A stretch of DNA of 54,194 nt from Parcubacteria group bacterium (GTDB lineage Bacteria > Patescibacteriota > Minisyncoccia > UBA10092), in NCBI GenBank assembly GCA_016188835.1, contig JACPHB010000010.1, forward strand, positions 1 to 54,194, given 5' to 3'. A program made the translations under genes and the position numbers. The notes beneath the pieces are model-generated. The model saw only the letters and a list, made by a program, of their open reading frames with translations. It did not search any database and was not told the DNA's origin. Of the stretch, positions 1 to 43,563 are shown piece by piece; within the stretch, counting starts at the first letter, position 1, and every line of letters begins with the position of its first letter.

Positions 1-2403
1 AAATTTTTTACTAATCGCATCTTCCACTTCTTGGCGCGGTTTGGCATATTTTTGTCGGCATAATTCTCTTAATTTTTCCGCTTCATCCAAACTGCTGTCC
101 GGAGAATCTTCAGTCATAATGTTAAATGGTGTAGTAGTAGCACCATTAAGTAACAGCTTAACATAGGCATGGCGATTATCAATATTGATAAGATCGGATT
201 CGTTAAATACCGGTTCAAAATATTTAACTAAAAATTTAGCGTCTTCCGGGCCAATTCTAAACGAAGCTATGGAACCGGCATTGCCAAAAACCGAATCCCG
301 AATCTTATCGGTAAGCTGTCCAATAAATTGATGGGCTAAAATAAGGTTAAGGCGATATTTTCTGGCTTCGGCAAGAATAGTTGCTATAGAATCGGTCGTA
401 AAATTTTGAAATTCATCCATATAAAGATAAAAATCCCGCCGCGATTCCTCATTTCGCTCCTGCGCTCTCCTAAAAGCCGCCATTTGGAGTTTGGCGGTTA
501 TAATCAGCCCCAAAAGAGCGCTATTCATTTCTCCGATTCTGCCTTTTGAAAGATTAACAAGTAAAATTTTGCCGTTATTCATTATATCATTAAAATCAAT
601 TCCCGAACGGCTTTGACCAATTATATTTCTCATCATTGAATTTTCAACAAATCTGCCTACTTTACTAACCAAGTATCCGATCATCTCCGATTTGGTTTGC
701 TCCGACATTTTAAGCATTTCTTTTTCCCAAAAATCCCGCACCAAGGGATCGGTAACTTTTATGAGCAGTTGGCGGACAAAAGTTGGATCGGTGAAAATGC
801 GGGGAATATCAACCAAAGTTCCAGGGCTGTCTTCATCAGCCATTAACGTTAACATGGCATTTCTCATGCTGTGTTCAAAAACTGGACCAAGGTGTTCCGC
901 CAGAAAAAGTTTTTGAAAAGTGGCAATCATTTCTTGGATGGCAAAATCTTTTTCAGTCGCGGTGGCAGCTTCCAAAAGATTTAAACCTACCGGCCATTCA
1001 GTATCGGCCGGATCAAACAAAACCACATCGTTGTAGCGAGAGCGCGGAATAAGACCCAAAATCGCTTCAACCAAATCGCCATGGGGATCTATTACGCCAA
1101 TGCCGGCGCCGCTATCAATATCTTGTTTAATAAGATTTCTTAAAAGATAACTTTTTCCGGTGCCGGTTTGTCCGATAATATAAAGGTGGCGCCGTCGGTC
1201 AAGCGGATTTAATTTAATAATTGTTTCTTGATTTCTGAACTGGTTTCGGCCCAGAATCACGCCGGATGCCGGTAAAATCGCCGGCGGCGCGGCGGCCTTG
1301 GCTTTAACAAACCTTACTTTTGGCGTTTCTATTTTAATAATCGGAAAGTGAAAAATACTGGTTAATTCTTCTCCGGAAACCCAGATGCTTTCCGATTTAT
1401 TAAATAATCTGAAAGAAAAATTGTAAATTAAATTTTTTAAAATTCTTTTTTGCGGCCTAAAACTATAAAAAGAATTCAAATCCGGAAATTCAAACTGGGC
1501 AAAAGCGCTTTCAATGTTTGACAGTATTTGCGCCGCTTCTTCATCTGTTTCCGCCGATACCAAAATTCTAATGTTAACTTCAAATAAATTTTGCTTCGCT
1601 TTGTTATCAATGACATTAATAAGATCTTGGGTAAGCGGCGTTAACGTTTTGGGAAGTTCAGCGGATTTGTTGTTATCTTCCGATTTTTTAATGTTAAAAA
1701 ATTCTCTAAAGGCGTCAATAAAAGACAAGGGACTTTCTATTTCGTTAACAGCTTTATCTAAATGCTTACCCTGATACAGGTGTTTTATAACTTTTATGGC
1801 GTCGCTTTTTGATGAATATTTTGTCGGCCTAACTAAAATTTGAAGCGCCACTCCTTCGCCCCTGGCTTTAAGAGATGAAACGGCGTTAGTGATAAGGCCG
1901 AGGGTGCTGGCCTCAAGTTTTTTGTAGGTCTGGAACGGTAAAACATAATTGCGTTTTAATTTAAGCGTTGAGCCGGCGCTTTTTCCGCTTCTATTGAAAA
2001 TATTGTAATCGTTTATTGGTTCAATCTGGGCTTCCGGAAAAAATCCCTGAATTTGCCTTTGCATCGTATTTTGAAATTTTTTTGGAAGAGCAAAATAAAA
2101 GCCAATTTCCTCCCCTTCTTCCGGTACGGCAATTTCAAACACCATATATGGCTTGGGAGAAAAAAAACCGCTTTCTTTTTGTAAAATAGCGTTTAAAGAA
2201 TTGTAAAATTGCTCCATTATCAAAAGCTTTTCTTTTTCCTTATTAATGTCGGTTGATTCTAAAATTTTCGGAAAGCGAATTTCAAACAAAATAAAATTCA
2301 AAGAGCTGAAAATAATTCCTTTTCGCCAAGCCCTGTTAAACAAAAACCAAACAAACAATAAAACAATAGCGATTGCTAGAATAAATATTAGATAATAAAA
2401 CAT
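1..2403 (-). CDS. Fused membrane/N-terminal domain plus VirD4/TraG/TraD-like (type IV coupling protein family) P-loop ATPase. The C-terminus runs off the window; 801 codons are visible.
   Basis: This gene is absent from the ORF track because it has no stop inside the window. My own reverse-strand translation from the ATG at 2403..2401 stays open to base 1 (MFYYLIFILAIAIVLLFVWF...). It has Walker A IIGQTGTGKS (about 1150..1176), Walker B FYLYMDEFQNF, and ARKYRLNLILAHQFIGQL. The first ~390 aa parallel ORF 43567..44814 and the rest parallels ORF 41746..43452. Confidence 0.8.
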   Translation of the reverse strand, partial: MFYYLIFILAIAIVLLFVWFLFNRAWRKGIIFSSLNFILFEIRFPKILESTDINKEKEKLLIMEQFYNSLNAILQKESGFFSPKPYMVFEIAVPEEGEEIGFYFALPKKFQNTMQRQIQGFFPEAQIEPINDYNIFNRSGKSAGSTLKLKRNYVLPFQTYKKLEASTLGLITNAVSSLKARGEGVALQILVRPTKYSSKSDAIKVIKHLYQGKHLDKAVNEIESPLSFIDAFREFFNIKKSEDNNKSAELPKTLTPLTQDLINVIDNKAKQNLFEVNIRILVSAETDEEAAQILSNIESAFAQFEFPDLNSFYSFRPQKRILKNLIYNFSFRLFNKSESIWVSGEELTSIFHFPIIKIETPKVRFVKAKAAAPPAILPASGVILGRNQFRNQETIIKLNPLDRRRHLYIIGQTGTGKSYLLRNLIKQDIDSGAGIGVIDPHGDLVEAILGLIPRSRYNDVVLFDPADTEWPVGLNLLEAATATEKDFAIQEMIATFQKLFLAEHLGPVFEHSMRNAMLTLMADEDSPGTLVDIPRIFTDPTFVRQLLIKVTDPLVRDFWEKEMLKMSEQTKSEMIGYLVSKVGRFVENSMMRNIIGQSRSGIDFNDIMNNGKILLVNLSKGRIGEMNSALLGLIITAKLQMAAFRRAQERNEESRRDFYLYMDEFQNFTTDSIATILAEARKYRLNLILAHQFIGQLTDKIRDSVFGNAGSIASFRIGPEDAKFLVKYFEPVFNESDLINIDNRHAYVKLLLNGATTTPFNIMTEDSPDSSLDEAEKLRELCRQKYAKPRQEVEDAISKKF

Positions 2404-2647: not shown

Positions 2648-4231
2648 ATGCCCAGCAAATATAACACTATCGCTTTAATTTTAATTATCACTATTGCGAT
2701 TTTTTTCAGGTTCTGGCAGTTTAATTCCATCCCACCCGGTTTATATCAAGACGAAGCGATGAATGGCGCCGACGCCTTGAGTTCTTTAGAAAGCGGAAAA
2801 CTTGGCGTTTTTTATACAAATAACAATGGCCGCGAAGGAATGATTGTTTGGTTAGATGCTTTAGCTATTAAAGTTTTTGGAACAGAACCATGGGTGTTAA
2901 GATTATTTCCCGCCCTTGCCGGAGTTTTGGCCGTTTTAGTGTTGTTTTTTCTGGCAAAAGAACTTTTTAGTGTTGAGATTGCCTTGGCTTCAAGCTTTTT
3001 TATGGCAACCAGTTTCTGGGCGGTAAATTTCAGCCGAATCGGTTTTAGAGCCGGACTTATGCTGCCAATCTTAATATGGTCTTTTTACTTCTTATATCGC
3101 GGCTTTAAATTATTGACATCCGATGTCGATAGCGACTATCGACATCGGATGTCAGATTTTATTACTGCTGGAATTTTATTCGGTTTGGGATTTTATACTT
3201 ATATTTCGTATAGATTCGCGCCGATTTTAGTCGCCGCATTTTTCATACCCTATCTTTTAAAACATCACATAAAAAACCTGTGGTTGGGATTTGCGATTTT
3301 CGCGATTACGGCTTTTATTGTCGCTTTACCGATAGGACTTTATTTTATTAATAACTCCGGCGACTTTTTCGGAAGAAGCAGGCAAGTATCTATTTTTTCA
3401 GCAGATAACCCCCTTAAGGCCTCTGTTTTAAGCATTGCGGCAACATTAGGAATGTTTAATATTATCGGAGACCTTAACTCACGGCATAATTTTGCCGGCT
3501 CTCCGCAATTGCTTTTGCCGGTGGGAATTTTATTTATTTTAGGGATTTTGATATGCGCCAAAAGAAGAAATTTGAGCGATAAGTTTTTATTGCTCTGGTT
3601 TTTTATATTTTTACTGCCAAATATTTTATCAACGGAGGGTAATCCCCACGCTTTGCGGGCTTTGGGAGCGATGCCTGCAGCAATGATTTTTGCCGGCATT
3701 GGATTAATTTGGCTTTATCAAAAAGTTAAAGGATATTTTGATAAAAAGATTAAAAATTTAGAACTTGAAGCTTACCGCGGCCAATTATTAAGAATTAAAA
3801 AAGAGGTCTTTATATTGCTATTCATTTTTTTATTGTTCATAAGCTTTTCTGAATTTAACAAATATTTTATTAAATGGGCTTCAAACATCCGCACCGCCGA
3901 TGCCTTTTCGCAAAGCCATGTTAAAATTGCCGACTACTTAAACCTATCGCCGAGAAACGTTAAAAAATATGTTATTTGGCCTGTGGATGATCGGCCAACA
4001 GAAAACGGCTTGCCGGTTTCCGCGCAAACCATATATTTCCTTACTTATGGAAAATCCGATATAAATTATGTGAAGTTCAATGAATCTGATAAAATAAATT
4101 TAGGGGCAAACGGTGCGATAATCGCTACGCTTAACTCCGATTTGGACTTGCTTCACGATTTAAATAAAAAATTTCCGAGCGGGAAAATTGAATTTATTTA
4201 TTTAAACACTCCGATTTTAATAGTTCCATAA
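2648..4231 (+). CDS. Polytopic membrane glycosyltransferase, GT39 / ArnT-PMT-like
   Basis: The 527-aa protein has many hydrophobic segments. The N-terminal loop PPGLYQDEAMNGADA carries the DE motif typical of ArnT/PMT-type lipid-carrier-dependent glycosyltransferases. Confidence 0.8.
   Translation: MPSKYNTIALILIITIAIFFRFWQFNSIPPGLYQDEAMNGADALSSLESGKLGVFYTNNNGREGMIVWLDALAIKVFGTEPWVLRLFPALAGVLAVLVLFFLAKELFSVEIALASSFFMATSFWAVNFSRIGFRAGLMLPILIWSFYFLYRGFKLLTSDVDSDYRHRMSDFITAGILFGLGFYTYISYRFAPILVAAFFIPYLLKHHIKNLWLGFAIFAITAFIVALPIGLYFINNSGDFFGRSRQVSIFSADNPLKASVLSIAATLGMFNIIGDLNSRHNFAGSPQLLLPVGILFILGILICAKRRNLSDKFLLLWFFIFLLPNILSTEGNPHALRALGAMPAAMIFAGIGLIWLYQKVKGYFDKKIKNLELEAYRGQLLRIKKEVFILLFIFLLFISFSEFNKYFIKWASNIRTADAFSQSHVKIADYLNLSPRNVKKYVIWPVDDRPTENGLPVSAQTIYFLTYGKSDINYVKFNESDKINLGANGAIIATLNSDLDLLHDLNKKFPSGKIEFIYLNTPILIVP
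3114..3154. repeat. Perfect 18-bp inverted repeat with a 5-nt loop inside the GT39 coding sequence
   Basis: The sequence is tgacatccgatgtcgata-gcgac-tatcgacatcggatgtca. It is in frame and encodes LTSDVDSDYRHRMSD. Confidence 0.9.
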
Positions 4232-4597: not shown

Positions 4598-6451
4598 ATG
4601 AAAAAAGTCAATATCTTAGTATTTTTACTACTTTTAATTTTTGGCGTTCTTGCAGTAACCAGCATGTGGAACGACAGCGCCAATTATGATGAACGGATTC
4701 ACTTGCCGGCCGGATATTCTTACTTAACGCAAAAAGACATGCGCTTAAACCCTGAACATCCGCCGCTGGTAAAAGACATGGCCGCTTTGCCGCTTTTATT
4801 TTTAGATATTAAATTCCCCTTCCAAAGCTGGGGTTGGAATACGCCATTAAATGCCGATCGGTCGCGAACTCCGGCTTGGCAAACAGATGTCGGCTTTGGA
4901 AACGACCTGCTTTATTATTCAGGAAACGACGCGCAAAAAATGATGCGGTATGGAAGAATCCCGATTATTTTGATTGGCATTTTTTTGGGATTTTACATTT
5001 GGCGATTTACTAAAGAATTATGGGGTAACTTAGCCGGCATCATCGCTTTAACTTTTTATTCATTTTCCCCTACCGTTTTGGCGCATACGAGGCTTGTGAC
5101 AACCGACGTTGCCGCCGCCGCCGCGTTTTTTATCAGTTTTTATTATCTTTATCATTGGCTTAAAGCGCCGACACGAAGAAACCTGTGGATTTTCGGTATT
5201 GTTCTTGGTTTAGCGCTTCTAACAAAATTTTCTACTTTTCTCTTGATTCCCATTTTTGGCGCGATTGTTTTAATATGGGCGCTTTTAGAAAATCAGAAAA
5301 AATGGTTTTGGACCGCAAAATATATCGGCGGATTTATTTTCATTTTAATTATTGCTTTTCTTGTTATCGGCGCTATTTATTCTTTTCACACTTGGAATTA
5401 TCCGATTGAAAAACAGGCAATTGACACAAAATTCATTTTATCAACTTTCGGGTTTAAACCGCTGGCTAATTTTAACGTTTGGATTTCTTCGCAACCCTAT
5501 TTAAGAGCTTATGGTCATTATCTTTTGGGATTTTTAATGGTATTGCAGCGTTCTCTAGGAGGCAATACGACTTATTATCTTGGTAATGTCTCGGCGGAAG
5601 GAGCGCGATCGTATTTCCCGGTCGTTTATCTGATTAAAGAGCCGCTCGCTTATATCTTGATGGTTTTATTCGGATTGTTTTTGGCTTTGAAACATTGCCT
5701 AAGCCATTGCCGCCAGCGGCAATTCCGCTATTGGTGGCAAGATTTTGTTGATCTTATAAAAAATAACCCGGCGGAAATGGGAATGATTTTTATAATTTTT
5801 ATTTACTGGGCTTTTTCGGTTCGTTCCCGCCTCAATATCGGCGTGCGCCATATTTTGCCGACAATTCCTTTTATTTACGCTCTGACGGCCAGACAAATCG
5901 CCGCTTGGATTAAAGACGGCGTAACCGAAAGAATACCTAATTATCGAAGGTTCCTGCCTGCCGGCAGGCAAGTTTGGCAGCTTTTGGGATTATATTGGGA
6001 AAGAATAAAACGGTCAGTATTAGTTGTCATGTTTTTCTTCTGGGCGATTTTAACCACGTTATTCATCTATCCTTATTTTCTTACTTATTTCAACGAAATT
6101 GCTGGCGGGCCGGATAACGGCCACGAGTTGGTTGTAGATTCTAATCTTGATTGGGGGCAGGATATTTTGCGATTAGCAGATTTTATAGAAAAAAAGAATA
6201 TCAAAGAAATAAAATTGGATTATTTTTCCGGCGCTCCGGCGCAGTATTATATTAAAACGGCTAAAATTGAATCTTATAATCGCGAAACTCCGCAAAAAGG
6301 ATGGTTAGCAGTTTCGGCTACAATTTACATGGGCGCCTGTAAAGCTGATAAAATCCCCTGCTCTTACAACGAACGCGCTTATGTATGGCTTGATTCTTAT
6401 AAGCCAATGGCCAAAATAGGATATTCTATTTTTGTTTATGATTTAAAATAA
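4598..6451 (+). CDS. Second polytopic membrane glycosyltransferase (GT39/PMT_2-like)
   Basis: The 617-aa protein has an N-terminal motif ANYDERIHLPAGYSYL...NPEHPPLVKDMAALPL and many TM segments. Confidence 0.75.
   Translation: MKKVNILVFLLLLIFGVLAVTSMWNDSANYDERIHLPAGYSYLTQKDMRLNPEHPPLVKDMAALPLLFLDIKFPFQSWGWNTPLNADRSRTPAWQTDVGFGNDLLYYSGNDAQKMMRYGRIPIILIGIFLGFYIWRFTKELWGNLAGIIALTFYSFSPTVLAHTRLVTTDVAAAAAFFISFYYLYHWLKAPTRRNLWIFGIVLGLALLTKFSTFLLIPIFGAIVLIWALLENQKKWFWTAKYIGGFIFILIIAFLVIGAIYSFHTWNYPIEKQAIDTKFILSTFGFKPLANFNVWISSQPYLRAYGHYLLGFLMVLQRSLGGNTTYYLGNVSAEGARSYFPVVYLIKEPLAYILMVLFGLFLALKHCLSHCRQRQFRYWWQDFVDLIKNNPAEMGMIFIIFIYWAFSVRSRLNIGVRHILPTIPFIYALTARQIAAWIKDGVTERIPNYRRFLPAGRQVWQLLGLYWERIKRSVLVVMFFFWAILTTLFIYPYFLTYFNEIAGGPDNGHELVVDSNLDWGQDILRLADFIEKKNIKEIKLDYFSGAPAQYYIKTAKIESYNRETPQKGWLAVSATIYMGACKADKIPCSYNERAYVWLDSYKPMAKIGYSIFVYDLK
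5955..5970. repeat. 16-nt perfect palindrome tgcctgccggcaggca inside the coding sequence (encodes LPAGRQ)
   Basis: Read directly from the sequence. It belongs to the CCTGCC..GGCAGG family also seen at 31239, 31339 and 35936. Confidence 0.85.
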
Positions 6452-20805: not shown

Positions 20806-20902
20806 GCCAATAAAACAAATTTTTTTAAAATTCCTTAGCCCCATTCGCCTTCGGCGAACGGCTCGCCCCCGCCTAGAATTTTAAAAAATTTGTTTTATTG
20901 GC
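20806..20902 (+). repeat. Long hairpin element, copy 1: a 27/28-bp AT-rich stem around a conserved GC-rich core
   Basis: The arms are gccaataaaacaaatttttttaaaattc and gaattttaaaaaatttgttttattggc. The core is cttagccccattcgccttcggcgaacggctcgcccccgccta. The right arm encodes the last 9 codons of holB. Confidence 0.9.
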
Positions 20903-21670
20903 ATCACAGTTAAAACTTAATAATAATTCATCATAAGCAAACTTCGGATTAATATTTGTTTCATTTAATTTAAAATAAATATTTTGGCTTGTTTTTAATA
21001 AATTGTTTAATTTTTGATTCGGGCTAAATAAGAATTTGGCTCTTAAAAATATGATCCAAAATTTGAAAATTTCAATTGCCGAGTAATCGCTAAATTTTTC
21101 AATAATAGAATATCGGTCTTTTGATTCATTGCTAAAAATTTCGTTAAAAATTTCTATAATTTTTTTATCTGTTTCTATATCAACGCCGTCTTGTCGCCAA
21201 AATGGCAATTTTATGCCGCGAGAAGCAATAGTTTCCGGAATTCCGTCAATAGTTTTAACGTTTAGTATAATAATGGCATGATTCGGTGCCTCTTCAAAAA
21301 TTTTGAGCAAGGCGTTTTGAGCGTAAATATTTAATTTTTCCGCCGCATCTATTACCGCTATTTTATATTTTCCGTAATAAGGACTTAAAATTAGAAATTT
21401 TTTAAGCTGCCTGATTAAATTTATAGACCGCTCTTCATCAGTATCGGCTGAAATTAAAATTAAATCCGGATTAAAACCCCGACGCTGTAAAGTCGGGGCT
21501 CCGACCGAAGCATCGGAGCTAAAATCAGGATTAAGAATTTTATTAGCGAATTTTAAAGCAATCGTTTTTTTAGCCAACTCATCCGGTCCATAAAAAATAT
21601 AAGCATGAGACAAACCATTGTTTTCAATGCATTTGTTAAGATAATCGGTAATTTTCTGATAATTATTCAT
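20873..21670 (-). CDS. holB: DNA polymerase III delta-prime-like clamp-loader subunit (divergent)
   Basis: The N-terminus NGLSHAYIFYGPDELAKKTIALKFANKILN and the length fit delta-prime. The Walker A motif is degenerate. Confidence 0.65.
   Translation of the reverse strand: MNNYQKITDYLNKCIENNGLSHAYIFYGPDELAKKTIALKFANKILNPDFSSDASVGAPTLQRRGFNPDLILISADTDEERSINLIRQLKKFLILSPYYGKYKIAVIDAAEKLNIYAQNALLKIFEEAPNHAIIILNVKTIDGIPETIASRGIKLPFWRQDGVDIETDKKIIEIFNEIFSNESKDRYSIIEKFSDYSAIEIFKFWIIFLRAKFLFSPNQKLNNLLKTSQNIYFKLNETNINPKFAYDELLLSFNCDANKTNFLKF
21477..21518. repeat. Tandem GC-rich hairpins inside holB
   Basis: The two hairpins are ccccgac-gctgtaaa-gtcgggg and ctccga-ccgaagca-tcggag. They encode SSDASVGAPTLQRRGF on the coding strand. 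Confidence 0.85.
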
Positions 21671-22693: not shown

Positions 22694-22792
22694 AAAAAAT
22701 GAAAATAAAATTTTAAAATTGTCATAGCCCCACCCCGCTTCGCGGGGCGGCACGACCCCGCCTACAATTTTAAAATTTCATTTTCATTTTTT
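22694..22792 (+). repeat. Long hairpin element, copy 2
   Basis: The arms are aaaaaatgaaaataaaattttaaaattgt and acaattttaaaatttcattttcatttttt (29 bp, 1 mismatch). The core is catagccccaccccgcttcgcggggcggcacgaccccgcct. Confidence 0.9.
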
Positions 22793-24124: not shown

Positions 24125-25066
24125 ATGACAATAAGATTCAGACGTTTTGTTTTTTGGATTTTTGTTATTCTATTTATCGCCGCGAGCATTACCATTACCC
24201 TTTTTGCCCAAGGATGGCGTTTTGATTTTGATTCTTTTAAAATGGTTAGAACCGGCGGTATTTTTGTTAAAACCACGGTTTCCGGCGCTAAAATATATAT
24301 AAATGATAAATTTACCGGAACAACAGCGGGCATTTTAAATTACACAAAATTAGTCGACGATCTTGCCCCCAAAAATTATAATCTTTTTATTCACAAAGAA
24401 GGATATTACCCATGGAACAAAATGGTTGAAGTAAAAAATGGCCTGGTAACCAAATTAATTTCTGTAACTTTATTTCCTTTGGAACTTAAAAAAATTAAAA
24501 TGGCGCAATTACCGGCGCAAAAAATAGCAGATTTTGAAGTTAACGATAAAACAATTAGGATAATAGATAATAAAAAAATAGGAACCGCTAAAATTTATGA
24601 TTTTGATGGGCAATTTATATCAAACGAAAAATTTAAAATTTCAACTTCCACAGAATTAATATCTCCCGATAAAAATAAAAAGCTTTATGCCGTAGATAAT
24701 AAAATTTGGATTGAGTATTTAAATGACATAAAAGAAGAGCCGTCTAAAAAAGCGGGGGAAAAAGAAATAATCGCTACGTCGGAATCGCCAATTTTATTTT
24801 TAGATTGGCTTAAAGATTCCGAGCACATTATCTGGCTTACTAACGGCGAATTAACAATTGCCGAAAGGGATAATCGAGGCGGTAAGCGGAACAGCGTTAA
24901 ATTTTATTTAAACATCAATCCGCCAATTTTTTGGGACATTAAAAATTTCGATCTCTATTTCTTTGAAACTGATAAATCCCGACGCCTTGACGGAACGTCA
25001 ACGGTCGGGATCCCGACCGAAGCATCGGGAGAAAAAATTATCTTATATAAAATAAATGTAGAATAA
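24125..25066 (+). CDS. Membrane-anchored PEGA-domain protein. The ATG at 24125 is preferred over the TTG at 24077.
   Basis: It has an N-terminal TM (FVFWIFVILFIAASITITLF) followed by a PEGA-like segment (GGIFVKTTVSGAKIYINDKFTG...NLFIHKEGYYPW). Confidence 0.65.
   Translation: MTIRFRRFVFWIFVILFIAASITITLFAQGWRFDFDSFKMVRTGGIFVKTTVSGAKIYINDKFTGTTAGILNYTKLVDDLAPKNYNLFIHKEGYYPWNKMVEVKNGLVTKLISVTLFPLELKKIKMAQLPAQKIADFEVNDKTIRIIDNKKIGTAKIYDFDGQFISNEKFKISTSTELISPDKNKKLYAVDNKIWIEYLNDIKEEPSKKAGEKEIIATSESPILFLDWLKDSEHIIWLTNGELTIAERDNRGGKRNSVKFYLNINPPIFWDIKNFDLYFFETDKSRRLDGTSTVGIPTEASGEKIILYKINVE
24977..25030. repeat. Tandem GC-rich hairpins inside the PEGA gene (same family as 21477..21518)
   Basis: The two hairpins are tcccgac-[gccttgacggaacgtcaacg]-gtcggga and tcccga-ccgaagca-tcggga. 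They encode SRRLDGTSTVGIPTEASG. Confidence 0.85.
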
Positions 25067-25078
25067 CAATTATTCCAC

Positions 25079-25098
25079 TTTCAGACGATCGTCTGAAA
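25079..25098. terminator. 20-nt perfect palindrome between convergent genes
   Basis: The sequence is tttcagacga-tcgtctgaaa. Confidence 0.45.
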
Positions 25099-25113
25099 CT
25101 CGTATAATTAAAA

Positions 25114-25158
25114 ACGGCACGTGGGAGAAGATCGCTGATGCGATTTCCCACGTGCCGT
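25114..25158 (-). terminator. GC-rich rho-independent terminator of the SPFH gene
   Basis: acggcacgtggga pairs with tcccacgtgccgt (13-bp perfect stem). On the minus strand it is followed by TTTTTAATTAT. Confidence 0.7.
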
Positions 25159-25186
25159 ATTGCCGATTGAACTGCTCTTTGGCCGG

Positions 25187-26056
25187 CTACTTGGTAGGCT
25201 TGCCCGAAGCGTCGAATGTTCCGACGAGAGGCACCCCGTTGTTGCCCACAGGGATATAGATCGTCGTGTGATTCGGCGACCCCACCATCTTCTCTTGCGC
25301 CGCGATCGCCTCGTGCTGGAGGTACTGGGGAGTGAGGCGCTGGTTGATGATCTCCATCGCCTTAGCAACACCCTCAGCGTCCTTGATTCGTTTCTCCGCG
25401 TCTCGCCCGGCGATCTGGATTTCGGTCGCCTTCTGCTCGAGAAGCTGAGTCGTTGCCATCTTCTTGGCCACGGCATTCGCCACTTCATCTGGGTATTGGA
25501 TATCGCCGACGACCACACTCATGATGTCGAACGGGGTGTTGTTGACCCAGATCTTCATTGTCTTCTCGATGGCATGGCCGATCTGAACAATCCGCTCTTT
25601 GAGAGCCAACGCATCCAGCGCCTGCACTTCATCACGAGTCGCCGTTCGCAATGGCTCCTTCAAAAAGTTACCGTAGGCGACTTCGACGACCTTGTTCGGG
25701 TTCTTGTCGTCGCCCCTTTCGAGCGTCGTGTACTTCTCGACGAACAACTTCACTTGCTCGTGTTCAGGCTTCACCCGCCAGACGATGTGCACCTGGAAAG
25801 ACACCTTGAGGTTGTCCTTCGAGAGAACGGTCATCGGCTCATGGTAGGTGTATGGCGTCACGCTGATGTTGTGAGCGTCGAGCAGCCATCCGAGCCCCGT
25901 CGATGTCGGCCCCGTCTGCATGTTGTAGAACCGATCATGACCGAACCAGGCGCCCTGCGTGACGTACCCGACGTAACCAGCAGGGGTTGAAGGGTTCGAG
26001 CAGCCGACGAGACCGAACGAACCAATGACGAGAGCGAGAAAAATAATCCTTTTCAT
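25187..26056 (-). CDS. SPFH/Band-7 (prohibitin/stomatin-like) lipoprotein; compositionally foreign
   Basis: It has a signal peptide plus lipobox (MKRIIFLALVIGSFGLVGC). The Band-7-like core carries a C-terminal Ala/Glu-rich helix (ATTQLLEQKATEIQIAGRDAEKRIKDAEG). GC is about 52-67% on hand-counted lines, against 23-40% in the flanks. Confidence 0.8.
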   Translation of the reverse strand: MKRIIFLALVIGSFGLVGCSNPSTPAGYVGYVTQGAWFGHDRFYNMQTGPTSTGLGWLLDAHNISVTPYTYHEPMTVLSKDNLKVSFQVHIVWRVKPEHEQVKLFVEKYTTLERGDDKNPNKVVEVAYGNFLKEPLRTATRDEVQALDALALKERIVQIGHAIEKTMKIWVNNTPFDIMSVVVGDIQYPDEVANAVAKKMATTQLLEQKATEIQIAGRDAEKRIKDAEGVAKAMEIINQRLTPQYLQHEAIAAQEKMVGSPNHTTIYIPVGNNGVPLVGTFDASGKPTK

Positions 26057-26155
26057 CTTGCGCCTCCTTTAGGCGTTTTTTCTCTTGTTTTTGGCATCAC
26101 TCAGCAAATACCTCACAATGAGATACCGCTTGATGCCAAGGAACTACTGTTGTTT

Positions 26156-26185
26156 ATTATAACACGTGTATAATTATAACGTCAA
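26156..26185 (-). promoter_or_regulatory. Promoter TTGACG-N18-(TGt)TATAAT for the SPFH gene
   Basis: Read on the minus strand. It is followed by a structured leader of about 90 nt and an AAGGAGG Shine-Dalgarno sequence. Confidence 0.55.
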
Positions 26186-26198
26186 TAGATGAAATATT

Positions 26199-29938: not shown

Positions 29939-30156
29939 AATCGTCTTATTATTCGGCCCCGCCTCTTATCAGAAGATAATTCAACTTCCACACGATCACC
30001 GACCAAAACACGAATAAAATTTAACCGCATTTTACCTGATAAATGAGCTAAAATTTCCGTGCCATCTTCTAATTTAACTCTAAAAGTTGTATTTGGTAAG
30101 GCCTCTGTAACAGACCCTATAAGTATTAATCTTTTATTATCTATCATAAGAAACAT
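29935..30156 (-). CDS. infA: Translation initiation factor IF-1
   Basis: It has the S1-like fold signature [31 protein letters not shown]. Confidence 0.95.
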
Positions 30157-31817
30157 TAGTTGTCAATAGTAATATTAATCTTTCTGGAGTTACTGGGAGC
30201 GCGATTAACCCAAAACGGCCAAAGAGAAATGGCGGCGCTATTTATATATGTTTTATCAGAAATAATTGTTCTCATTTCAATTTCATCGCGTCCGGCCAAC
30301 TCTTTTTTAAGAACTTCAAGATCGGCTGGCAAGGCATTATTTTTATCAACGTTAAAAGTAAAAAATAATTCTCCTTTTTTAAAATCAACGCGATTAGCTT
30401 CGGGATAGGCAATATTATCATTAAAAGTGAAATTTTTTAAGTCTGGATAATGGTTTGATACAAAATAATTAATCATTGTTTTTAAATCTTTTTCTTTAAA
30501 AAATATGGCTTGCCAGGTAACTTTCATACTTAAAACATTTGCATTAATCTTATAATTATCAACTTTTACAGAAGAAGCGCCCTCAACTAACTGTAAATCT
30601 GAATCTTTCAGCGTGTTTAGAACATCAGTTTTTAATTCTTGCGCCAATTTATCTTGAAGTTCTTTCTTGTTTTGCAGAATCGCTTCTTGGTTTAAAGAAG
30701 AATTTGTAATAATGCTCATTGGTTCAATGCTTTTGGCGTAAAAACCGGCATACTTGGGCGTTTCTTTAAAACCGGGAATAGTAAAATATGATGGACCAAT
30801 TAAATAGTCGTTTGAAGCCTCGTTACCGATAACTTCCGTTTTAATGAAGCTGGGTGTTAATTTCGCATTTAACATTTTCGCGCCAGGAATAATAATTGAA
30901 TTTTTGATTCGGAAAATTTTACCGTCTTTTGTTTCAAATCTTGTATTGGCGACTAATTTTTGAGGAGCGGCGCTGTAAGCATTGTAAATTTCTATAACGC
31001 CGCCGACTTCAGGGCGACCTTCTATTGTTTTTGAACCGGTTTTATCTAATGAAAAGTATTGCCCGGGTATAATGCCGGCAGTTAAATTTGAAGAACTCAC
31101 ATTTTTACTTACGGCAACAGGAATCTGGACTTTAAGCGGAATTTCCTTTAAAGAAATTTTGATATTGGCTTTTGGTAAAATCAAATACATTGCTGTGCCA
31201 AAGAGCAAAAATCCGCTAATCATCAAAAAAAATATTGCCTGTCTGCCGAGATGCCATCTTGAATCCTCGCTGCCGCGCCTATCGGCAGGCAGATAGAAAT
31301 TTTCAAGATTTTTTTCTAAATCTAAATTTTGACTCGCCGTGCCTACCGGCAGGCAGGCAGTTTCATAGATAACTGGCTCCGGCGGCAGATTATAATCCGG
31401 CTCCGATTCTTTCCCTTTTGGTATTTCTTCTGTTATTTCTTCGGGCAATTCTTGAATTCCAGATGATGGCGGCAAAATATCCATCATAATTTTTATTTTT
31501 TTATCAGATTTTATTCGTTCTGTTGTTTCTTTTTTTTCTCCGCCAGAAACGGAAAAATTATTATTATCATAAATCAACATTTTTATTTTTTTGGCAAAGG
31601 ACTTTATCTCATTATTTTCGGTGTTAAGCGATAATATTTTGCCTATGCTCTCGGCCTCTTCTTTTAAAATTTTTATAGAATTTAAATCGGCGGCGATTAT
31701 AGAATTTTTAGGTAAAACCAAAACGACCTCTTGTTGCTTTGACCGCATTAAACGATCAATCAAAATAGCGGCATTATCTTTAATTCTGGCTCTAATTATT
31801 TCAAACCCTTGAGACAT
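30156..31817 (-). CDS. Hypothetical single-pass membrane protein (553 aa) at the head of the infA-rpmJ-rpsM operon
   Basis: The long ORF has one central TM ([20 protein letters not shown]) and overlaps infA by 1 nt. I cannot name a family with confidence. Confidence 0.6.
31239..31292. repeat. GC-rich inverted repeat inside the 553-aa ORF
   Basis: ctgtctgccga pairs with tcggcaggcag (11 bp with one G-U) around a 32-nt GC-rich loop. It encodes [18 protein letters not shown]. Confidence 0.75.
31339..31360. repeat. CCTACCGGCAGGCAGG palindrome-like element inside the 553-aa ORF
   Basis: The sequence is gtgcctaccggcaggcaggcag. It encodes CLPVGTA on the coding strand. Confidence 0.7.
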
Positions 31818-34717: not shown

Positions 34718-35893
34718 TCAGTCAATAATCCCGCCGCCAAGCATTTCCTTGCCATCCGAAGCTTTAGCGAAGGAGGGGCCACTCCTTAAAGAATAGAAAA
34801 CCGCGCTTTGGCCGGGAGTGACAGCTCTTTGCGGCTCTTTAAATTGAATAACGAATTTTGAATTATAAATTATGGTTTTATTCTTAATTCCTGATTCATA
34901 ATTCATGATTCGTGCTTCTTGCAATGGTTGGCGATAACGAATACGTGCAAGGCAATTCAGCGGTAATTTCGGCAGTTTTCCCGAAATCCAGTTGATGTTT
35001 TTTACCATTAACTTATTTGCAAATAAATTTTCATCCTTGCCTTCGGCCACAAAAATAATATTGGTTTTTAAGTCCTTTGCCGCGACATAATAAATTTTTC
35101 CCTGTTCGCCAGGCAAACTGCCTTTAATGCCAATCCCCCTTCTTTGGCCGATGGTGTAAAAAACCGTGCCATCATGCGTGCCAATAATTTTTCCATTAAG
35201 ATTTTTAATCGGCCCCGGATTTTTTCCAAGTTTTTCTTTTAAAAACCCCGCAACATTAATTTCACCGACAAAACAAACGCCTTGCGAGTCGGGTTTTTCA
35301 GCCGTCGGCAATTTATATTTTTTAGCGATTGCCCGTACTTGCGGTTTGGTGTAATCGCCAATCGGAAAAAGGCAATGTTTTAATTGCCCTTGAGTTAAAG
35401 TCCATAAAAAATAACTCTGGTCTTTATTTAGATCTTTTGCAATTTTTAATTTACAATTTGAAAATTGAGATTTGGAAATTGGAAATTCCCGCTGCAGGCG
35501 GGTGTAGTGTCCGGTAGCGATATAATCCGCTCCTAATTCAAGCGTTTTTTTTAAAAACAAGCCGAATTTAATTTCCCGGTTGCACATTACATCAGGGTTG
35601 GGAGTTCGACCAGCGGCGTATTCGCTGACCATATAATCAACCACGGCTTTTTTAATTTTATTTTCAAAATCAAAAACATAAAAAGGAATGCCTAAAACTC
35701 CGGCAACGCGCCTCGCGTCGGTTGCATCTTCTTCGGCGCAGTTTACCCCGACCGAAGCGTCGGGGCCGCTCCAAGACCACCCTTTCATATAAACTCCAAC
35801 GACATCGTATCCATTTTGTTTTAACAACAAAGCCGCAACGGACGAATCAACGCCACCCGACATCGCGCAAAATATTTTTTTTCGCTTATTCAT
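34718..35893 (-). CDS. mnmA: tRNA 2-thiouridine(34) synthase MnmA. The start is set at Met32 of the track ORF.
   Basis: It has the PP-loop CAMSGGVDSS. The 31 upstream codons translate a terminator hairpin and are rejected. Confidence 0.9.
   Translation of the reverse strand: MNKRKKIFCAMSGGVDSSVAALLLKQNGYDVVGVYMKGWSWSGPDASVGVNCAEEDATDARRVAGVLGIPFYVFDFENKIKKAVVDYMVSEYAAGRTPNPDVMCNREIKFGLFLKKTLELGADYIATGHYTRLQREFPISKSQFSNCKLKIAKDLNKDQSYFLWTLTQGQLKHCLFPIGDYTKPQVRAIAKKYKLPTAEKPDSQGVCFVGEINVAGFLKEKLGKNPGPIKNLNGKIIGTHDGTVFYTIGQRRGIGIKGSLPGEQGKIYYVAAKDLKTNIIFVAEGKDENLFANKLMVKNINWISGKLPKLPLNCLARIRYRQPLQEARIMNYESGIKNKTIIYNSKFVIQFKEPQRAVTPGQSAVFYSLRSGPSFAKASDGKEMLGGGIID
35746..35765. repeat. GC-rich hairpin inside mnmA (ccccga-ccgaagcg-tcgggg)
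   Basis: It has the same loop as the holB and PEGA copies, with compensatory stem changes. It encodes PDASVG. Confidence 0.8.
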
Positions 35894-35935
35894 AGTTGAA
35901 ATATCATGACACATAAAACTAAAAACCGCAAAAAA

Positions 35936-35971
35936 CCCCGCCTGCCTGCGGTAGGCAGGCAAAATGCGGGG
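35936..35971 (-). terminator. Rho-independent terminator after nrdJ, built from the CCTGCC..GGCAGG element
   Basis: The minus strand reads ccccgc-attt-tgcctgcc-taccgc-aggcaggc-gggg followed by TTTTTT. Confidence 0.7.
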
Positions 35972-35979
35972 TATAGAAA

Positions 35980-38376
35980 TTAACAAACATTGTAATCGCA
36001 GTTACTGCAGTGGCTGCAACCTTCTTCGTAAATCAACGTGCCCTGCCGGCATTGCGGGCAGCGATTACCGCGAAGAATCGCAATTTCTTTTTCTTTTATT
36101 TCTTTATCTTCAATAAAGCCAAAATATTTTAGATAAAAATCAATGGCCTTGCTGACACCATCGGCAAGCGATGTAACTTTTTCTTTTCCGAAACCGGAAG
36201 TGCGGCTTCCGCCAATGCCCCTAAGCTGGTCTTTAAGCTGGGTCAGGCGCTCAATCGGTGTTTTAGGCGATTCAATCCGCAAATGTGCTGAAGCCAACCG
36301 CCCCATGGCTTCGGCATCAGCCGCGGCATCGGTTCCTGCCTTGGCAACATTGATAAAAATCTCAAACGGTTCAATCGGTCCGATTTCAATATCATAATTA
36401 ATGGTGACAAAAGCGGCGCCATCGGGTGTTTCCACACGCGTGGTAATGCCATGAGCCGGCTTTGGCCTTGAGCGGATAAAATCTCGGTAATCTAATTTAC
36501 CCTTTTGACTGTTATCAATTCCCACTGTAAGCACTCCGCCTTTGCAGCCATCGCGAAAAACGGTGATCCCAAGGCAAGCGGTTTCATAAGCAAGCCAATA
36601 AATTTTTTCAATATCGGCCGGCGTGGCCGAATTGGGCAGATTAATGGTTTTACTTACTCCATTATCGGTGTTTTTCTGAAAAGCGGACTGGATTTTGACA
36701 TGCCACTCCGGCTTTATCTCATGGGCAGTGATAAAAACTTTCCTCACATCGCCTGGGATGCCGTCTAAATCGCTAATTTGGCCGCGGTTTTTGACTTCTT
36801 CTTCAAGTTTTTCGGAATAAAAACCGCGCTTTTTGGCAACTTCGAGAAATCTTTCAAATCCTGGCTGGATTCGATATAAAATCCGATTTTCAAACTTGTG
36901 AATTTCCGTAAGGCCGTAGAACGGCTCAATGCCGCCGGAACAGCCGGCCAAAATCCTGATTTCACCGGTCGGAGCAATAGTTGTAATGGTGCAATTTCTC
37001 ATCGGTTTATCATCTTTATAAATACTCTTATCCCATAGCGGGAAAGGTCCTCGTTCCGTGGCGAGTTTTTGCGACTCATCGTGGCCAATATCATTGATAA
37101 ATTTTGATACCTGTTCCGCCAGCTTAATAGCATCATTTGACGCGTAGGGCGTATCAAGATAAGTCAACATGTCGGCCCAGCCCATAATGCCAAGGCCAAT
37201 TCGCCGGATTTTATGCGCAAAATCTGTAATTTGAGGAAGCGGATAAGGATTAAGTTCAATGACATTATCCAAAAAGTGAACGGCTAACCTTACGGTTTTT
37301 TCCAATTCATTGAAATTAATTTTGTATTTATCGTTTTCTCTGATTAGAAACTTGGAAAGATTGATAGAACCCAAATTACAAACATCGAAATCAAAAAGCG
37401 GTTGTTCGCCGCAGGGATTGGTCGCGTTAATCATTTTAAGAGATGGAATTGGATTTGCCCGCCATCTGTTGGTTTTATCAATAAACCACAAACCGGGATC
37501 GCCGGTTTCCCACGCCATTTTTACAATGGCATCAAAAACCGTCCTGGCTTTAATCCGAGATACAACCTCGCCACTATGCGGAGCGATTAAATTATATTCT
37601 GCATTATTTCTAACTGCCTCCATAAAAACATCGGTTGCCGCCACGGAAATATTAAAGTTGGCAATTTGCGTATCAAGAAGCGAAGTTCTTAAAAGGTCTA
37701 AAGCGCGCTTGCTGTAAATGAATGGTTTTACGCGTTCATATATTACCTTGTTTTTATCTATTAACATTCCCTTGGACTCGACAAATTCCATGATATCGGG
37801 ATGATGAACATTCATAATCGCCATATTGGCGCCGCGGCGCATACCACCCTGTTTCACAAATTCGGTTGAAGTATTAAATACTTTAAGGAACGAAACGGGG
37901 CCAGATGACCGGCCGCGAGTGGATTTTACAAGCGCGTCTTTCGGCCGCAAAGATGAAAACGAAAAACCGGTTCCACCTCCGGATTTATGGATTATCGCCT
38001 GCCACTTGATGGCATCATAAATTCCATCCATAGAGTCCTCAACTGGAAGGACAAAACAGGCGGAAAACTGCAATCCGTTGCCGGTGCCGGCATTGTAAAT
38101 TGTCGGAGCGTTCGGGAAAAACTTTCTTTCCGCTAAAGTAGCGTAAAATTCTTTTGCCAAATCATTAACTTCGTCGTCGGACTTATTGAATTTTTTATCG
38201 GCGGAAGCTATGTGGTAAGCGACTCGCCAGCACATGCCTTCAACTGTTTCAACTATTTGGCCGTCTCTATCGCGGCGCAAATAACGCTCGTTAATAAGCT
38301 TAAGCGCATCCTCCGTAAAATCGGGAGCAATAAGGCCTTCGGGCATTTGAGCGATATAAACCTTAGTTCGGCTCAT
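35980..38376 (-). CDS. nrdJ: Class II (adenosylcobalamin-dependent) ribonucleotide reductase with a C-terminal Cys-rich zinc ribbon
   Basis: The 798-aa protein has the active-site NPCGEQPL and the C-terminal CPQCRQGTLIYEEGCSHCSNC. Confidence 0.9.
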   Translation of the reverse strand: MSRTKVYIAQMPEGLIAPDFTEDALKLINERYLRRDRDGQIVETVEGMCWRVAYHIASADKKFNKSDDEVNDLAKEFYATLAERKFFPNAPTIYNAGTGNGLQFSACFVLPVEDSMDGIYDAIKWQAIIHKSGGGTGFSFSSLRPKDALVKSTRGRSSGPVSFLKVFNTSTEFVKQGGMRRGANMAIMNVHHPDIMEFVESKGMLIDKNKVIYERVKPFIYSKRALDLLRTSLLDTQIANFNISVAATDVFMEAVRNNAEYNLIAPHSGEVVSRIKARTVFDAIVKMAWETGDPGLWFIDKTNRWRANPIPSLKMINATNPCGEQPLFDFDVCNLGSINLSKFLIRENDKYKINFNELEKTVRLAVHFLDNVIELNPYPLPQITDFAHKIRRIGLGIMGWADMLTYLDTPYASNDAIKLAEQVSKFINDIGHDESQKLATERGPFPLWDKSIYKDDKPMRNCTITTIAPTGEIRILAGCSGGIEPFYGLTEIHKFENRILYRIQPGFERFLEVAKKRGFYSEKLEEEVKNRGQISDLDGIPGDVRKVFITAHEIKPEWHVKIQSAFQKNTDNGVSKTINLPNSATPADIEKIYWLAYETACLGITVFRDGCKGGVLTVGIDNSQKGKLDYRDFIRSRPKPAHGITTRVETPDGAAFVTINYDIEIGPIEPFEIFINVAKAGTDAAADAEAMGRLASAHLRIESPKTPIERLTQLKDQLRGIGGSRTSGFGKEKVTSLADGVSKAIDFYLKYFGFIEDKEIKEKEIAILRGNRCPQCRQGTLIYEEGCSHCSNCDYNVC

Positions 38377-41745: not shown

Positions 41746-43452
41746 TTATTTTCCAATTGTCTCTTCCAAAATCTTTTTTAGGCCTTCGGTATCAACGGTT
41801 TTACGCTGCCTGCCCTGCATAGCTTTTGGAGCTGGCGATTCTTGAGTTCGAGGCCTCAACTGCGATAAATGCACTGGTTTAACGGGTGGGCGCCTGCCTG
41901 CCATCGCCTGCGGCTCAGGTCGCTGGCGGGCAGAAGTTTTAGAAAAACAATCCTTACAGTAAACCGGCCTCGTCGGATCAGGTTTAAAAGGAACGGTTGT
42001 ATTTTTCCCGCAATTCGCGCAAACGGCGCTGAACATATTTTTTTTATCATCAAAAGCGCCACGCTCTCCGCTAGAGGGTCCGCGCGAAGATGTATTGTAT
42101 GACGGTAAATCGTAAGCGTCTCTTTGAGACGAACTTTGTGCTTCTGCCTGTAGAACACCTGTAGCAATAGATATGGTGCTTTCTACTTCGGCTTTTGGCG
42201 TGCCATAAGTAATTCTCGAGTACTCTATAATTTCATCGGCATAAGAAATTTCCGGTTTGGAATATGGCGGTAAAGTGATCGCCGAAAACGGCCTTGACGG
42301 AACGCCATCAATCAAAAGACGCAGATAAATATTATAATTAGGCAGATTAAGCAAATCTTGAGCCGTAATGTTAGGGCTAAATTGCTTTTCTTCCAAAAAT
42401 TCAACGTCTTCGCCGCCGGCTCTGAAAGCAATAAATGTGCCGACATTGCCAAAAATCGCGTCTTTTACCTTTACATTTTGGTCGTGAACCAACTGGCCGA
42501 TGTATTGATTGGCAATTGTAAGATCAAGGCGGAATTTTCTGGCTTCCGACAAAATGTCGGCAAAACTATCAGTAACAAAAGTTTGAAATTCGTCAACGTA
42601 AAGATAAAAATCTTTACGGTCTTCTTCCAAAATATCAACCCTACTCATGGCAGCAAGTTGGATTTTGGTGATAAGCATACCACCCAAGAGTTTTGTATTG
42701 TCTTCTCCGAGCCGCCCCTTGCTAAGGTTCATTATTACAATTTTTCCTTCATCCATGGCCTGCCGGAAATTAAACGAAGAAGTCGGCTGACCGATGATGT
42801 TTCTGATGATGGTTGCCGAACTGAACTGGCCGATTTTATTTTGAATGGCCGCCGTCGCTTCCTGTTCGTATTTTTGCTGATAAGCGGCATATTCCTGCGT
42901 CCAAAACGCTTTAATAACTGGATCAGATATTTGGTTCACGATATTTTTTCTAAATGCCTTATCGGAAAACATCCGGTTAACGCCAAGCAAAGTGGAACCT
43001 GGAACTTCTAATAGAGCTAAAATAGTGTTGTTTAAAATATATTCCATTCGAGCGCTCCAAACATCGGGCCAGATTTTTTTAAATACTCCCATAAGACCAG
43101 AGGCCACCAAGTGGCGCGCTTTAGCGTCTATGGTTTCTATGGCGTTAAAAGCTATCGGAAATTCCATATCGGCCGGATTGAAATAAATAACGTCTTTTAT
43201 CCGGTTTTCCGGAATATAATGAAGCAACCTCTCAGCCATTTCACCGTGAGGATCAACAAACCCCATGCCGCGGCCAGCCAAAATATCGGAAATCATCATA
43301 TTCATTTGCAAAGTGGTCTTGCCGGTGCCGGTCTGCCCGATAATGTACATATGGCGACGGCGATCGTCGGTTTTAATGCCGAACTTTTTCCGTTCGTTAC
43401 GGAAAGTCGTTTCGGCAAAAAATGTTATTTCGTTTTTATTTTCGTTATTCAT
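41746..43452 (-). CDS. VirD4/TraG/TraD-like P-loop ATPase with a C-terminal CxxC-x17-CxxC zinc ribbon
   Basis: It has Walker A IIGQTGTGKT, Walker B FYLYVDEFQTF and ARKFRLDLTIANQYIGQL. The tail contains CANCGKNTTVPFKPDPTRPVYCKDC. Confidence 0.8.
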   Translation of the reverse strand: MNNENKNEITFFAETTFRNERKKFGIKTDDRRRHMYIIGQTGTGKTTLQMNMMISDILAGRGMGFVDPHGEMAERLLHYIPENRIKDVIYFNPADMEFPIAFNAIETIDAKARHLVASGLMGVFKKIWPDVWSARMEYILNNTILALLEVPGSTLLGVNRMFSDKAFRKNIVNQISDPVIKAFWTQEYAAYQQKYEQEATAAIQNKIGQFSSATIIRNIIGQPTSSFNFRQAMDEGKIVIMNLSKGRLGEDNTKLLGGMLITKIQLAAMSRVDILEEDRKDFYLYVDEFQTFVTDSFADILSEARKFRLDLTIANQYIGQLVHDQNVKVKDAIFGNVGTFIAFRAGGEDVEFLEEKQFSPNITAQDLLNLPNYNIYLRLLIDGVPSRPFSAITLPPYSKPEISYADEIIEYSRITYGTPKAEVESTISIATGVLQAEAQSSSQRDAYDLPSYNTSSRGPSSGERGAFDDKKNMFSAVCANCGKNTTVPFKPDPTRPVYCKDCFSKTSARQRPEPQAMAGRRPPVKPVHLSQLRPRTQESPAPKAMQGRQRKTVDTEGLKKILEETIGK

Positions 43453-43465
43453 ATTTATGTTATGT

Positions 43466-43563
43466 GATTACAAAAATAATAAAAATAAAATTCTAGGTGG
43501 GGGCGAGCCGTTCGCCGTAGGCGAATGGGGCTAAGGAATTTTATTTTTATTATTTTTGTAATC
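43466..43563 (-). repeat. Long hairpin element, copy 3 (core inverted relative to copies 1 and 2)
   Basis: Perfect 28-bp arms (gattacaaaaataataaaaataaaattc and gaattttatttttattatttttgtaatc) flank the core taggtgggggcgagccgttcgccgtaggcgaatggggctaag. The element fills the gap between the two genes. Confidence 0.9.

Follow-up and report, generated by a model that had tools for sequence, protein, structure and literature searches.

A dispersed family of short GC-rich hairpin elements in CPR bacteria, with in-frame copies in holB, a PEGA-domain gene and mnmA

In a stretch of 54,194 nt from a Parcubacteria group bacterium (assembly GCA_016188835.1, contig JACPHB010000010.1, positions 1 to 54,194; hereafter the window), three protein genes carry short GC-rich hairpin elements inside their reading frames: a DNA polymerase III delta-prime-like gene ('holB'), a gene for a membrane-anchored PEGA-domain protein, and mnmA, which encodes tRNA 2-thiouridine synthase. 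Elements of the same plan recur widely in the Candidate Phyla Radiation (CPR, or Patescibacteria), whose tiny genomes are thought to hold little repetitive DNA. We think it probable, at about 0.7, that they form a family of very short, non-autonomous, selfish CPR repeats, moved in trans and tolerated in genes where they are read through in a loop. Comparison of copies, flanks and orthologues shows insertions that are precise and without target-site duplication, that lie in A/T-rich DNA or in the loops of like hairpins, in either orientation, and that fall between genes or within them. By the same comparisons the genic copies are shown to be simply translated, and the use of all six frames shows protein-level selection to be absent. 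The first-pass annotation of this DNA had suggested a selfish or structured element family analogous to the Rickettsia palindromic elements (RPEs), a suggestion that insertions and dispersal bear out, the likeness to RPEs being one of analogy only.

The three copies and the family to which they belong

All three copies lie on the + strand. The one in holB (21477..21518; 58.9 bits in the covariance model search) is a double hairpin, with hairpin 1 at 21477-21498 (CCCCGAC-GCTGTAAA-GTCGGGG) and hairpin 2 at 21499-21518 (CTCCGAC-CGAAGC-ATCGGAG); the host gene (20873..21670, - strand; Pfam DNA_pol3_delta2, PF13177) translates it antisense as SDASVGAPTLQRRG. The second double hairpin (24977..25030; 53.5 bits) sits in the PEGA gene (24125..25066, + strand; the ATG at 24125 agrees with orthologues, the mechanical open reading frame (ORF) running from 24077) and is translated in sense as SRRLDGTSTVGIPTEASG; the 20-nt loop of its hairpin 1 (24977-25010) itself holds a small hairpin, TTGACG-GAA-CGTCAA (24987-25001), and its hairpin 2 (25011-25030) reads TCCCGAC-CGAAGC-ATCGGGA. 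In mnmA (34718..35893, - strand, with the start at 35893 taken from orthologues and the ORF spanning 34718..35986) there is a single hairpin of the hairpin-2 type, CCCCGAC-CGAAGC-GTCGGGG (35746..35765; 29.1 bits), within a 24-nt net insertion and read antisense as GPDASVG. At all three places the first-pass annotation had quoted the DNA exactly and in frame. It had described a tandem element in all three genes, which holds for holB and the PEGA gene, but mnmA has one hairpin only. The peptides it gave were correct and their frames are open, but the mnmA insertion comprises 8 aa (SLTG becoming SWSGPDASVGVN) and extends beyond PDASVG, and while the elements are GC-rich as claimed (65-70%), the window around them has 37.7% GC rather than one third.

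The window contains the 16-mer CCGACCGAAGCRTCGG three times, always on the + strand, against 0.04 expected, and none of 100 shuffled sequences reached three; the covariance model likewise recovered the three copies and no others. Folded as DNA, the two double copies stand apart from their shuffles (z -3.2 to -6.4), whereas the mnmA hairpin by itself is too short to do so (z -1.0 and -1.8). In both double copies an A stands for G at the pair closing the CGAAGC loop (21512 and 25024), giving a C.A mismatch, and the orthologous copies of the holB and PEGA elements in sister genomes have G there; the shared A reflects either two parallel changes or conversion from copy to copy. Rfam at its gathering thresholds matched only three tRNAs in the window, and a permissive search around the elements gave nothing at E<=1 except a chance match to frnS (21.7 bits against a threshold of 60). 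The holB, PEGA and MnmA proteins have their nearest homologues in metagenome bins of Candidatus Azambacteria and of other Parcubacteria (CPR/Patescibacteria).

Genomes were scanned for the 16-mer, with one genome per species, and metagenomes for the tandem form, which gave at least 120 loci. Combined, the two scans yield at least 146 distinct double-hairpin copies, and the counts that follow refer to the copies listed from them. The building block is a 20-nt hairpin module whose stem core, CCGAC/GTCGG, is invariant, and the usual unit is a tandem pair of such modules, mostly head-to-tail, with the consensus NN-CCGAC-G(variable loop)-GTCGG-NN followed by NN-CCGAC-CGAAGC-GTCGG-NN. Stems have 7 bp, made up of the core and two variable, mostly G-C outer pairs, and are perfect in both hairpins of 117 of the 146 copies; element length is 36-65 nt, with a mode at 39-42. 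The first base of the hairpin-1 loop is G in 137 of 146 copies and the remainder of that loop is free, at 5-35 nt, whereas hairpin 2 has a constant 6-nt loop, CGAAGC, with a closing base G in 141 of 146; the covariance model search also found the variant loops CGTAGC, CCAAGC and CTAATGC at other loci carrying copies. Because all four arms share CCGAC/GTCGG, alternative arm pairings are possible. Covariation of the stems, also claimed in the first-pass annotation, is upheld both in the window, where the outer bases CT/AG, TC/GA and CC/GG pair, and on 17 independent copies, in which 99.2% of cells are paired and the covariation of the outer pairs amounts to 22 double-change cells. None of 500 shuffles equalled that result, and slid controls gave 23-55% pairing. 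At five loci (L073, L180, L183, L196 and L205) the double hairpin lies within a longer repeat with flanks ATTCGTAT(T/C)CAT ... TTGTATATTCG-like, which suggests composite elements.

The double-hairpin architecture recurs outside the window, in more than 100 unrelated flanking contexts in CPR genomes and groundwater metagenomes, and 110 of the copies combine full 7-bp stems with a flank of 12 nt or more at either end. At about 20 low- or mid-GC loci among the matches listed, nearly all from CPR, the 16-mer has ahead of it another hairpin with the same stem. Bare 16-mer matches in high-GC genomes, which are many, are isolated, none of them with a neighbouring hairpin 1, and were set aside as chance. 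Taxa among the matches listed comprise Parcubacteria-group lineages (including Kaiser-, Taylor-, Vogel-, Yanofsky- and Nealsonbacteria), seven Saccharibacteria loci and Berkelbacteria, together with one copy in a 1.5-Mb Chitinophagaceae contig (L074); the metagenome loci are mostly from groundwater or aquifers, as read from their contig names (the Hainich 'Hain-' series, for instance). A 16-nt core common to Saccharibacteria, Parcubacteria and Berkelbacteria points either to horizontal exchange among CPR or to a shared recognition machinery. A consensus BLAST search of cultured phage and plasmid records and a scan of IMG/VR viral contigs gave no match, and our search of the literature by topic, motif and encoded peptides found no paper on CPR hairpin repeats.

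Insertion into genes and intergenic DNA

Alignment of orthologues and the empty-site DNA of syntenic relatives define precise insertions of 42 nt in holB, 54 nt in the PEGA gene and 24 nt in mnmA, and most orthologues of 70-88% identity are without them. These comparisons show recent, precise insertions in all three genes and agree with the lineage-specific origin first proposed for them, since the inserts occur in few orthologues only, the empty sites are exact at the DNA level and the holB and PEGA peptides fall in predicted disordered loops. The 14-aa insert of the holB product is found in the window (P0001) and in P0002/P0003 only and is missing in 37 other aligned orthologues, some of them 85-88% identical; orthologues that lack it have a continuous N-x-x-F-N-F-NPDL. 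The empty site in the syntenic loci L124 and L129 reads TTTTA(A/G) joined to ATTTTAATCC, where the window has the 42 nt of 21477-21518; L127 and L128 have this insert as well, and L124, L125, L126 and L129 (about 87% DNA identity) do not. In the AlphaFold model the peptide (residues 51-64) is coil, with a predicted local distance difference test (pLDDT) score below 50, between a helix (31-46) and a strand (70-74). At the corresponding position Escherichia coli gamma/tau has the cysteine-rich stretch CGVCDNC, which we take to be its zinc module.

The 18-aa insert of the PEGA protein occurs in the window and in P0122 (from the L124 genome) only, and is absent from about 50 other aligned orthologues covering the site, including some that are 80-83% identical; there FFETDK is joined directly to EKSILYKIN. 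In the DNA of L129 the empty site is GATAA joined to AGAAAAA, so that the insert measures exactly 54 nt, and the AlphaFold model places it in a disordered loop at a beta-hairpin turn, as coil with pLDDT below 50 between two beta strands. The longer mnmA sequence is found in 5 of 119 aligned orthologues, at a site that is a variable, gapped loop when compared with solved MnmA structures, and the distant L252 has a hairpin at the same site whose outer pairs are CT/AG, as against CC/GG in the window.

About one third of the copies are in ORFs, at 43 of 133 or 52 of 146 depending on the criterion used, and the remainder lie between genes of every arrangement, convergent, tandem and divergent. Within ORFs the ratio of sense to antisense copies is 29:23 and all six frames are used, giving the recurrent peptides PTEASG, SDRSVG, RPKRR, PDASVG, PTLRSG and SRRFGR; lengths divisible by three are enriched among coding-like copies, at 31 of 52 as against 35 of 94 others. 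The junctions have no repeated base at 77 of 110 copies and the others fit chance for 1-2 nt, and no target-site duplication was found, either in the junctions of these 110 copies or in pairs of empty and filled sites. The flanks are A-rich and have a modest preference (Y at -3, A at -2 and R at -1; Y at +1, W at +2, R at +3 and A at +4), with no fixed target word found at the insertion flanks of the copies listed. An enclosing third stem or a palindromic target was rejected because complementarity between the flanks is no better than chance and target-site duplication is absent. The strand that reads CGAAGC is the gene-rich, G-rich strand at about 2:1 (40:20 and 45:22), the three window copies being on the opposite strand.

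Copies are also found inside one another. A second 42-nt double hairpin lies inside hairpin 2 of the holB copy in L127, an extra 24-nt hairpin lies inside the loop of the mnmA hairpin in L251, and nesting is seen as well in L099, L064, L188, L229, L213, L219 and L211; in L099 and L064 the loop of hairpin 2 contains an exact inverted copy of hairpin 2. As to the fate of copies after insertion, 5 of the 42 positions of the holB element differ in L128 from the window, which is about the divergence of the gene, and its stems are broken in L128. In the holB tree the five sequences are roughly equidistant, at 12-15%, and this is compatible with a single insertion as well as with repeated ones.

Mode of spread and alternative explanations

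We propose that the elements are selfish or neutral passengers. They would spread in the form of folded single-stranded DNA, which an enzyme provided in trans would recognise by its conserved stem and CGAAGC loop. A copy in a gene would persist only if it added whole codons, were free of stops and fell in a tolerant surface loop, and certain loops could thus act as hot spots that gather different inserts in each lineage; once inserted, a copy would decay at the neutral rate unless it were copied again. The leading candidate for the enzyme would be a hairpin-binding HUH/Y1 transposase resembling those associated with repetitive extragenic palindromic (REP) sequences, the REP-associated tyrosine transposases (RAYTs). 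A Pfam census of 150 genes adjoining copies returned housekeeping families and two Y1_Tnp. RAYT-like Y1 genes are present at seven of about 120 element-bearing metagenome loci listed, a frequency that stands without a control for their base rate in CPR DNA; those of L156 and L193 match PF01797 and score 34-45 bits with the RAYT model NF047646, below its cut-off of 80, and the other five are tblastn matches to these two. At one locus, L201 (1987-12631), a RAYT-like Y1 gene is surrounded, within 13.8 kb, by six hairpin elements of the CCGAC type, and in L216 (3816-4549) three copies of another palindrome, CTTGGAAGC(T)CGGCTTCCAAG, flank the Y1 gene on its two sides. The presence of RAYT-like genes near copies is a lead, not evidence, and a link between the two is unproven because these genes have their own, different palindromes.

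Several observations weigh against a family of selfish repeats moved in trans. No transposase is encoded in the window, and all seven RAYT-like genes are flanked by palindromes that are longer than the CCGAC hairpins and different from them. Every insertion is inferred from comparison, without an observed transposition event. The hairpin-1 loop and the outer stem pairs differ in nearly every copy, which is unusual for spread from few master copies, and the 16-nt core is kept across very distant CPR phyla, for which a host function is also possible. Lastly, the PEGA copy is identical at 53 of 54 positions between the window and L124 while the gene is 87% identical, which suggests constraint or conversion instead of neutral decay; taken together with the A shared at the loop-closing pair, this conservation suggests homogenisation from copy to copy or a mutational hot spot.

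Two other explanations draw on these points, and both fit less well. The hairpins could arise de novo during replication or repair, by template switching, fold-back synthesis, or the formation and opening of hairpins at breaks in A-tracts and loops, with CCGAC and CGAAGC reflecting the preference of a host enzyme. Such an origin would suit hairpin-1 loops and outer pairs that are near-unique to each copy and yet always complementary, the inverted hairpin-2 copies in the loops of L099 and L064, which intrastrand template switching would yield, the absence of target-site duplication and the failure to find a cognate transposase. We nevertheless consider it unlikely, since an identical 16-nt core at more than 100 places and across phyla would be hard to make in this way, the double copies arrive whole, at 42 and 54 nt and with exact boundaries, and at a given locus a copy is passed on by descent and then decays. 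It is similarly improbable that each copy is a functional nucleic-acid signal under selection at its site, such as a binding site for a CPR protein or a signal for RNA processing, stability or translation pausing, with the copies in genes being regulatory. The invariance of the core across distant phyla, the covarying outer pairs, a PEGA copy better conserved than its gene and the bias of about 2:1 towards the gene-rich, G-rich strand would all agree with selection of this kind. However, most orthologues of the same genes have no copy, so that the copies are dispensable in those genes, the holB copy of L128 is no longer paired, both transcript orientations are equally common, the genes around intergenic copies may be convergent, tandem or divergent, and the hairpins are followed by no T-run and match no Rfam family.

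A third idea, that the peptides themselves are selected as flexible Gly/Pro/Ser linkers or as a short linear motif and that the palindrome is incidental, is very improbable and effectively excluded. It could account for peptides that fall in predicted disordered loops and have a high content of G, P, S, D and R, but six frames yield unrelated peptides, which already contradicts it; moreover about two thirds of the copies are intergenic, and it is the complementarity of the DNA that is conserved and not the peptide. Least probable of all, and likewise effectively excluded, is an artefact of assembly or sequencing (an adaptor or a chimera), for which there is no specific support: three Logan assemblies, independent of one another, contain an identical holB allele, orthologous copies occur in assemblies from both ENA and JGI, one copy lies in the 1.5-Mb Chitinophagaceae contig, and the reading frames stay open. 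A bolder possibility, which we entertain only tentatively, is that the 20-nt CCGAC module is a new minimal mobile DNA across the CPR radiation that inserts into unpaired DNA (A-tracts or the loops of its relatives), buds double and nested elements and is homogenised within a genome, by a single-strand process other than those of REP/RAYT or of the insertion sequences IS200/IS605 and possibly run by a conserved host enzyme. If this were true, the module would be a steady supply of new loop peptides for essential CPR proteins.

The selfish-repeat family that we favour resembles several known systems in some features and differs from them in others. With RPEs it has in common that palindromic repeats lie in a reduced, low-GC bacterial genome and in frame in functional genes, including replication genes, and add peptides outside the conserved core; it differs in that the CPR elements are GC-rich, built of modular 20-nt hairpins, subject to nesting and spread across several CPR phyla, as against one genus. 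RPE-1 repeats are palindromes of roughly 100-150 bp with a Rickettsia-specific consensus, and the CPR elements, at 36-65 nt and in a CPR host, are set apart from that type by length and host and not by a comparison of consensus sequences. RPE-4 and RPE-6 have a terminal CGTC tag and a CCA tail, the stems of CGTC-tagged REPs are 8-9 bp long and start with A-T pairs, with loops of 4-5 nt, and many REP families do not extend beyond a single species or a few (PMC3733652). The CPR elements were rejected as members of the tagged REP families (GTAG/CGTC, including RPE-4 and RPE-6), since they start and end at the stem with neither tag nor 3-nt tail and their geometry is another, with 7-bp stems on a CCGAC core and loops of 6 nt (hairpin 2) or 5-35 nt (hairpin 1). 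REP sequences and their paired form, REPINs, are similar in being 20-40 nt GC-rich hairpin units that are often paired, dispersed, mostly intergenic with some in ORFs, and marked by compensatory changes in their stems, and distant RAYT-like genes do occur near some CPR copies. In contrast to REPINs, which are head-to-head, the CPR pairs are mostly head-to-tail, about one third of copies are in ORFs and the core is shared across phyla. A REP/RAYT system has a cognate RAYT gene with the REPs that it moves at its flanks, and the RAYT-like genes here are flanked by palindromes different from the CCGAC hairpins.

Double-hairpin elements are known from the mitochondria of Allomyces. Those of sponges contain repetitive hairpin-forming elements (PMC2800124), and the yeast element GC42, a palindromic GC cluster of 42 nt that putatively duplicates an AG at its target site, merges and shuffles by a mechanism left unresolved (PMC4478555). 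Like such mitochondrial GC clusters, the CPR elements are palindromes of about 40 nt in a lower-GC genome, with sporadic presence and absence, merger, nesting and shuffling that give new variants, and insertions into coding sequence; by this analogy their behaviour matches GC clusters and double-hairpin elements more closely than it does RPEs and intragenic REPs. The cores appear unrelated, judged without a base-by-base comparison, and membership in GC42 was rejected in view of the bacterial host and the lack of a duplicated AG, the likeness being functional only.

The non-autonomous, short derivatives of IS200/IS605 (palindrome-associated transposable elements, PATEs) are also comparable, in that both ends have hairpins on the same strand and neither terminal inverted repeats nor a target-site duplication occur. 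They differ in that no fixed tetra- or pentanucleotide target was found for the CPR elements, only a weak YAR / YWRA, and that these have no sequence outside the hairpin feet. IS200/IS605 transposition needs guide and cleavage sites beyond those feet. Transposable elements of the miniature inverted-repeat kind (MITEs, for example Correia/NEMIS and RUP), short and non-autonomous too, were rejected as well, their terminal inverted repeats and target-site duplications being absent from the CPR elements. Nor are these intrinsic terminators, because the T-run after the hairpins is absent: on the + strand A predominates in the 3' flanks, and the window copies lie inside ORFs.

Significance and other inserts of the window

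The elements add peptides to essential proteins, here a clamp-loader subunit, MnmA and a cell-envelope protein, and bear on the origin of the many lineage-specific insertions of CPR proteins as well as on the search for single-strand DNA enzymes that move such elements. Because the recurrent PTEASG, PDASVG and PTLRSG are repeat-derived, the annotation and alignment of CPR proteins are affected, and since the presence or absence of a copy is a marker, copies could be of use in strain typing.

Compared with its syntenic relatives (about 86% DNA identity over the 20 kb compared), the window has several larger length differences of its own that are GC-rich hairpin inserts of several families, the CCGAC family among them; this comparison gave the inserts better than a scan for GC islands, which was noisy because ordinary coding GC peaks dominate it. 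The holB loop, the PEGA turn and the C-terminal loop of MnmA all have different inserts in different lineages, and because the same loops collect them, GC-rich hairpin insertion is general in these genomes. In the holB orthologue P0015, PAYRQAG occupies the loop of the CCGAC element, other orthologues have PFEKLRVNVERSQSI or PAQGEARQRW in this first loop, and in P0023, P0027, P0028, P0031 and P0032 a second loop, after WRQ, contains from one to several tandem ADFV(T/Q)PK. In mnmA, a 12-aa insert relative to solved MnmA structures, SLRSGPSFAKAS, is encoded near the C-terminus (34745-34790), in a loop where the Azambacteria orthologues have four or more distinct inserts, LPxEARRAKEG.. and GPSxAKASxGK among them, which makes it an insertion hot spot.

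A second GC-rich hairpin family, GCCCCATTCGCCTTCGGCGAACGGCTCGCCCCCGCC, is represented by an intergenic inverted pair about 22 kb apart (20833-20871 and 43492-43531) and by a copy at 22720-22765; the inserts at 20833 and 22720 are absent from L124, L125 and L129. A third, TGCCTGC...GCAGGCA, is read as LPAGRQ or PAYRRQAG and occurs at 31336-31356, 35943-35961, 5949-5972, 31265-31292 and 41879-41936; L129 lacks two of these copies, one of 21 nt in ORF 30156..31817 (- strand) and one of 19 nt upstream of mnmA. About 1.1 kb of GC-richer DNA (25070-26190) separates the PEGA gene from rpsI, absent from L124 and L129 and probably acquired horizontally, with a perfect 20-nt palindrome at its edge (TTTCAGACGATCGTCTGAAA, 25079-25098). 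It was considered as a possible transposase and rejected, since it encodes an SPFH/Band7 lipoprotein-like ORF (25187..26056, - strand). Elsewhere, a 41-nt perfect palindrome with 19-bp arms, TGACATCCGATGTCGATAG-CGA-..., is located at 3114-3154 inside a PMT_2 glycosyltransferase ORF (2648..4231, + strand), and the window has two genes for VirD4/TrwB-like ATPases (type IV coupling protein / HerA-type; 1..2403 and 41746..43452, both on the - strand), the second with a treble-clef zinc finger.

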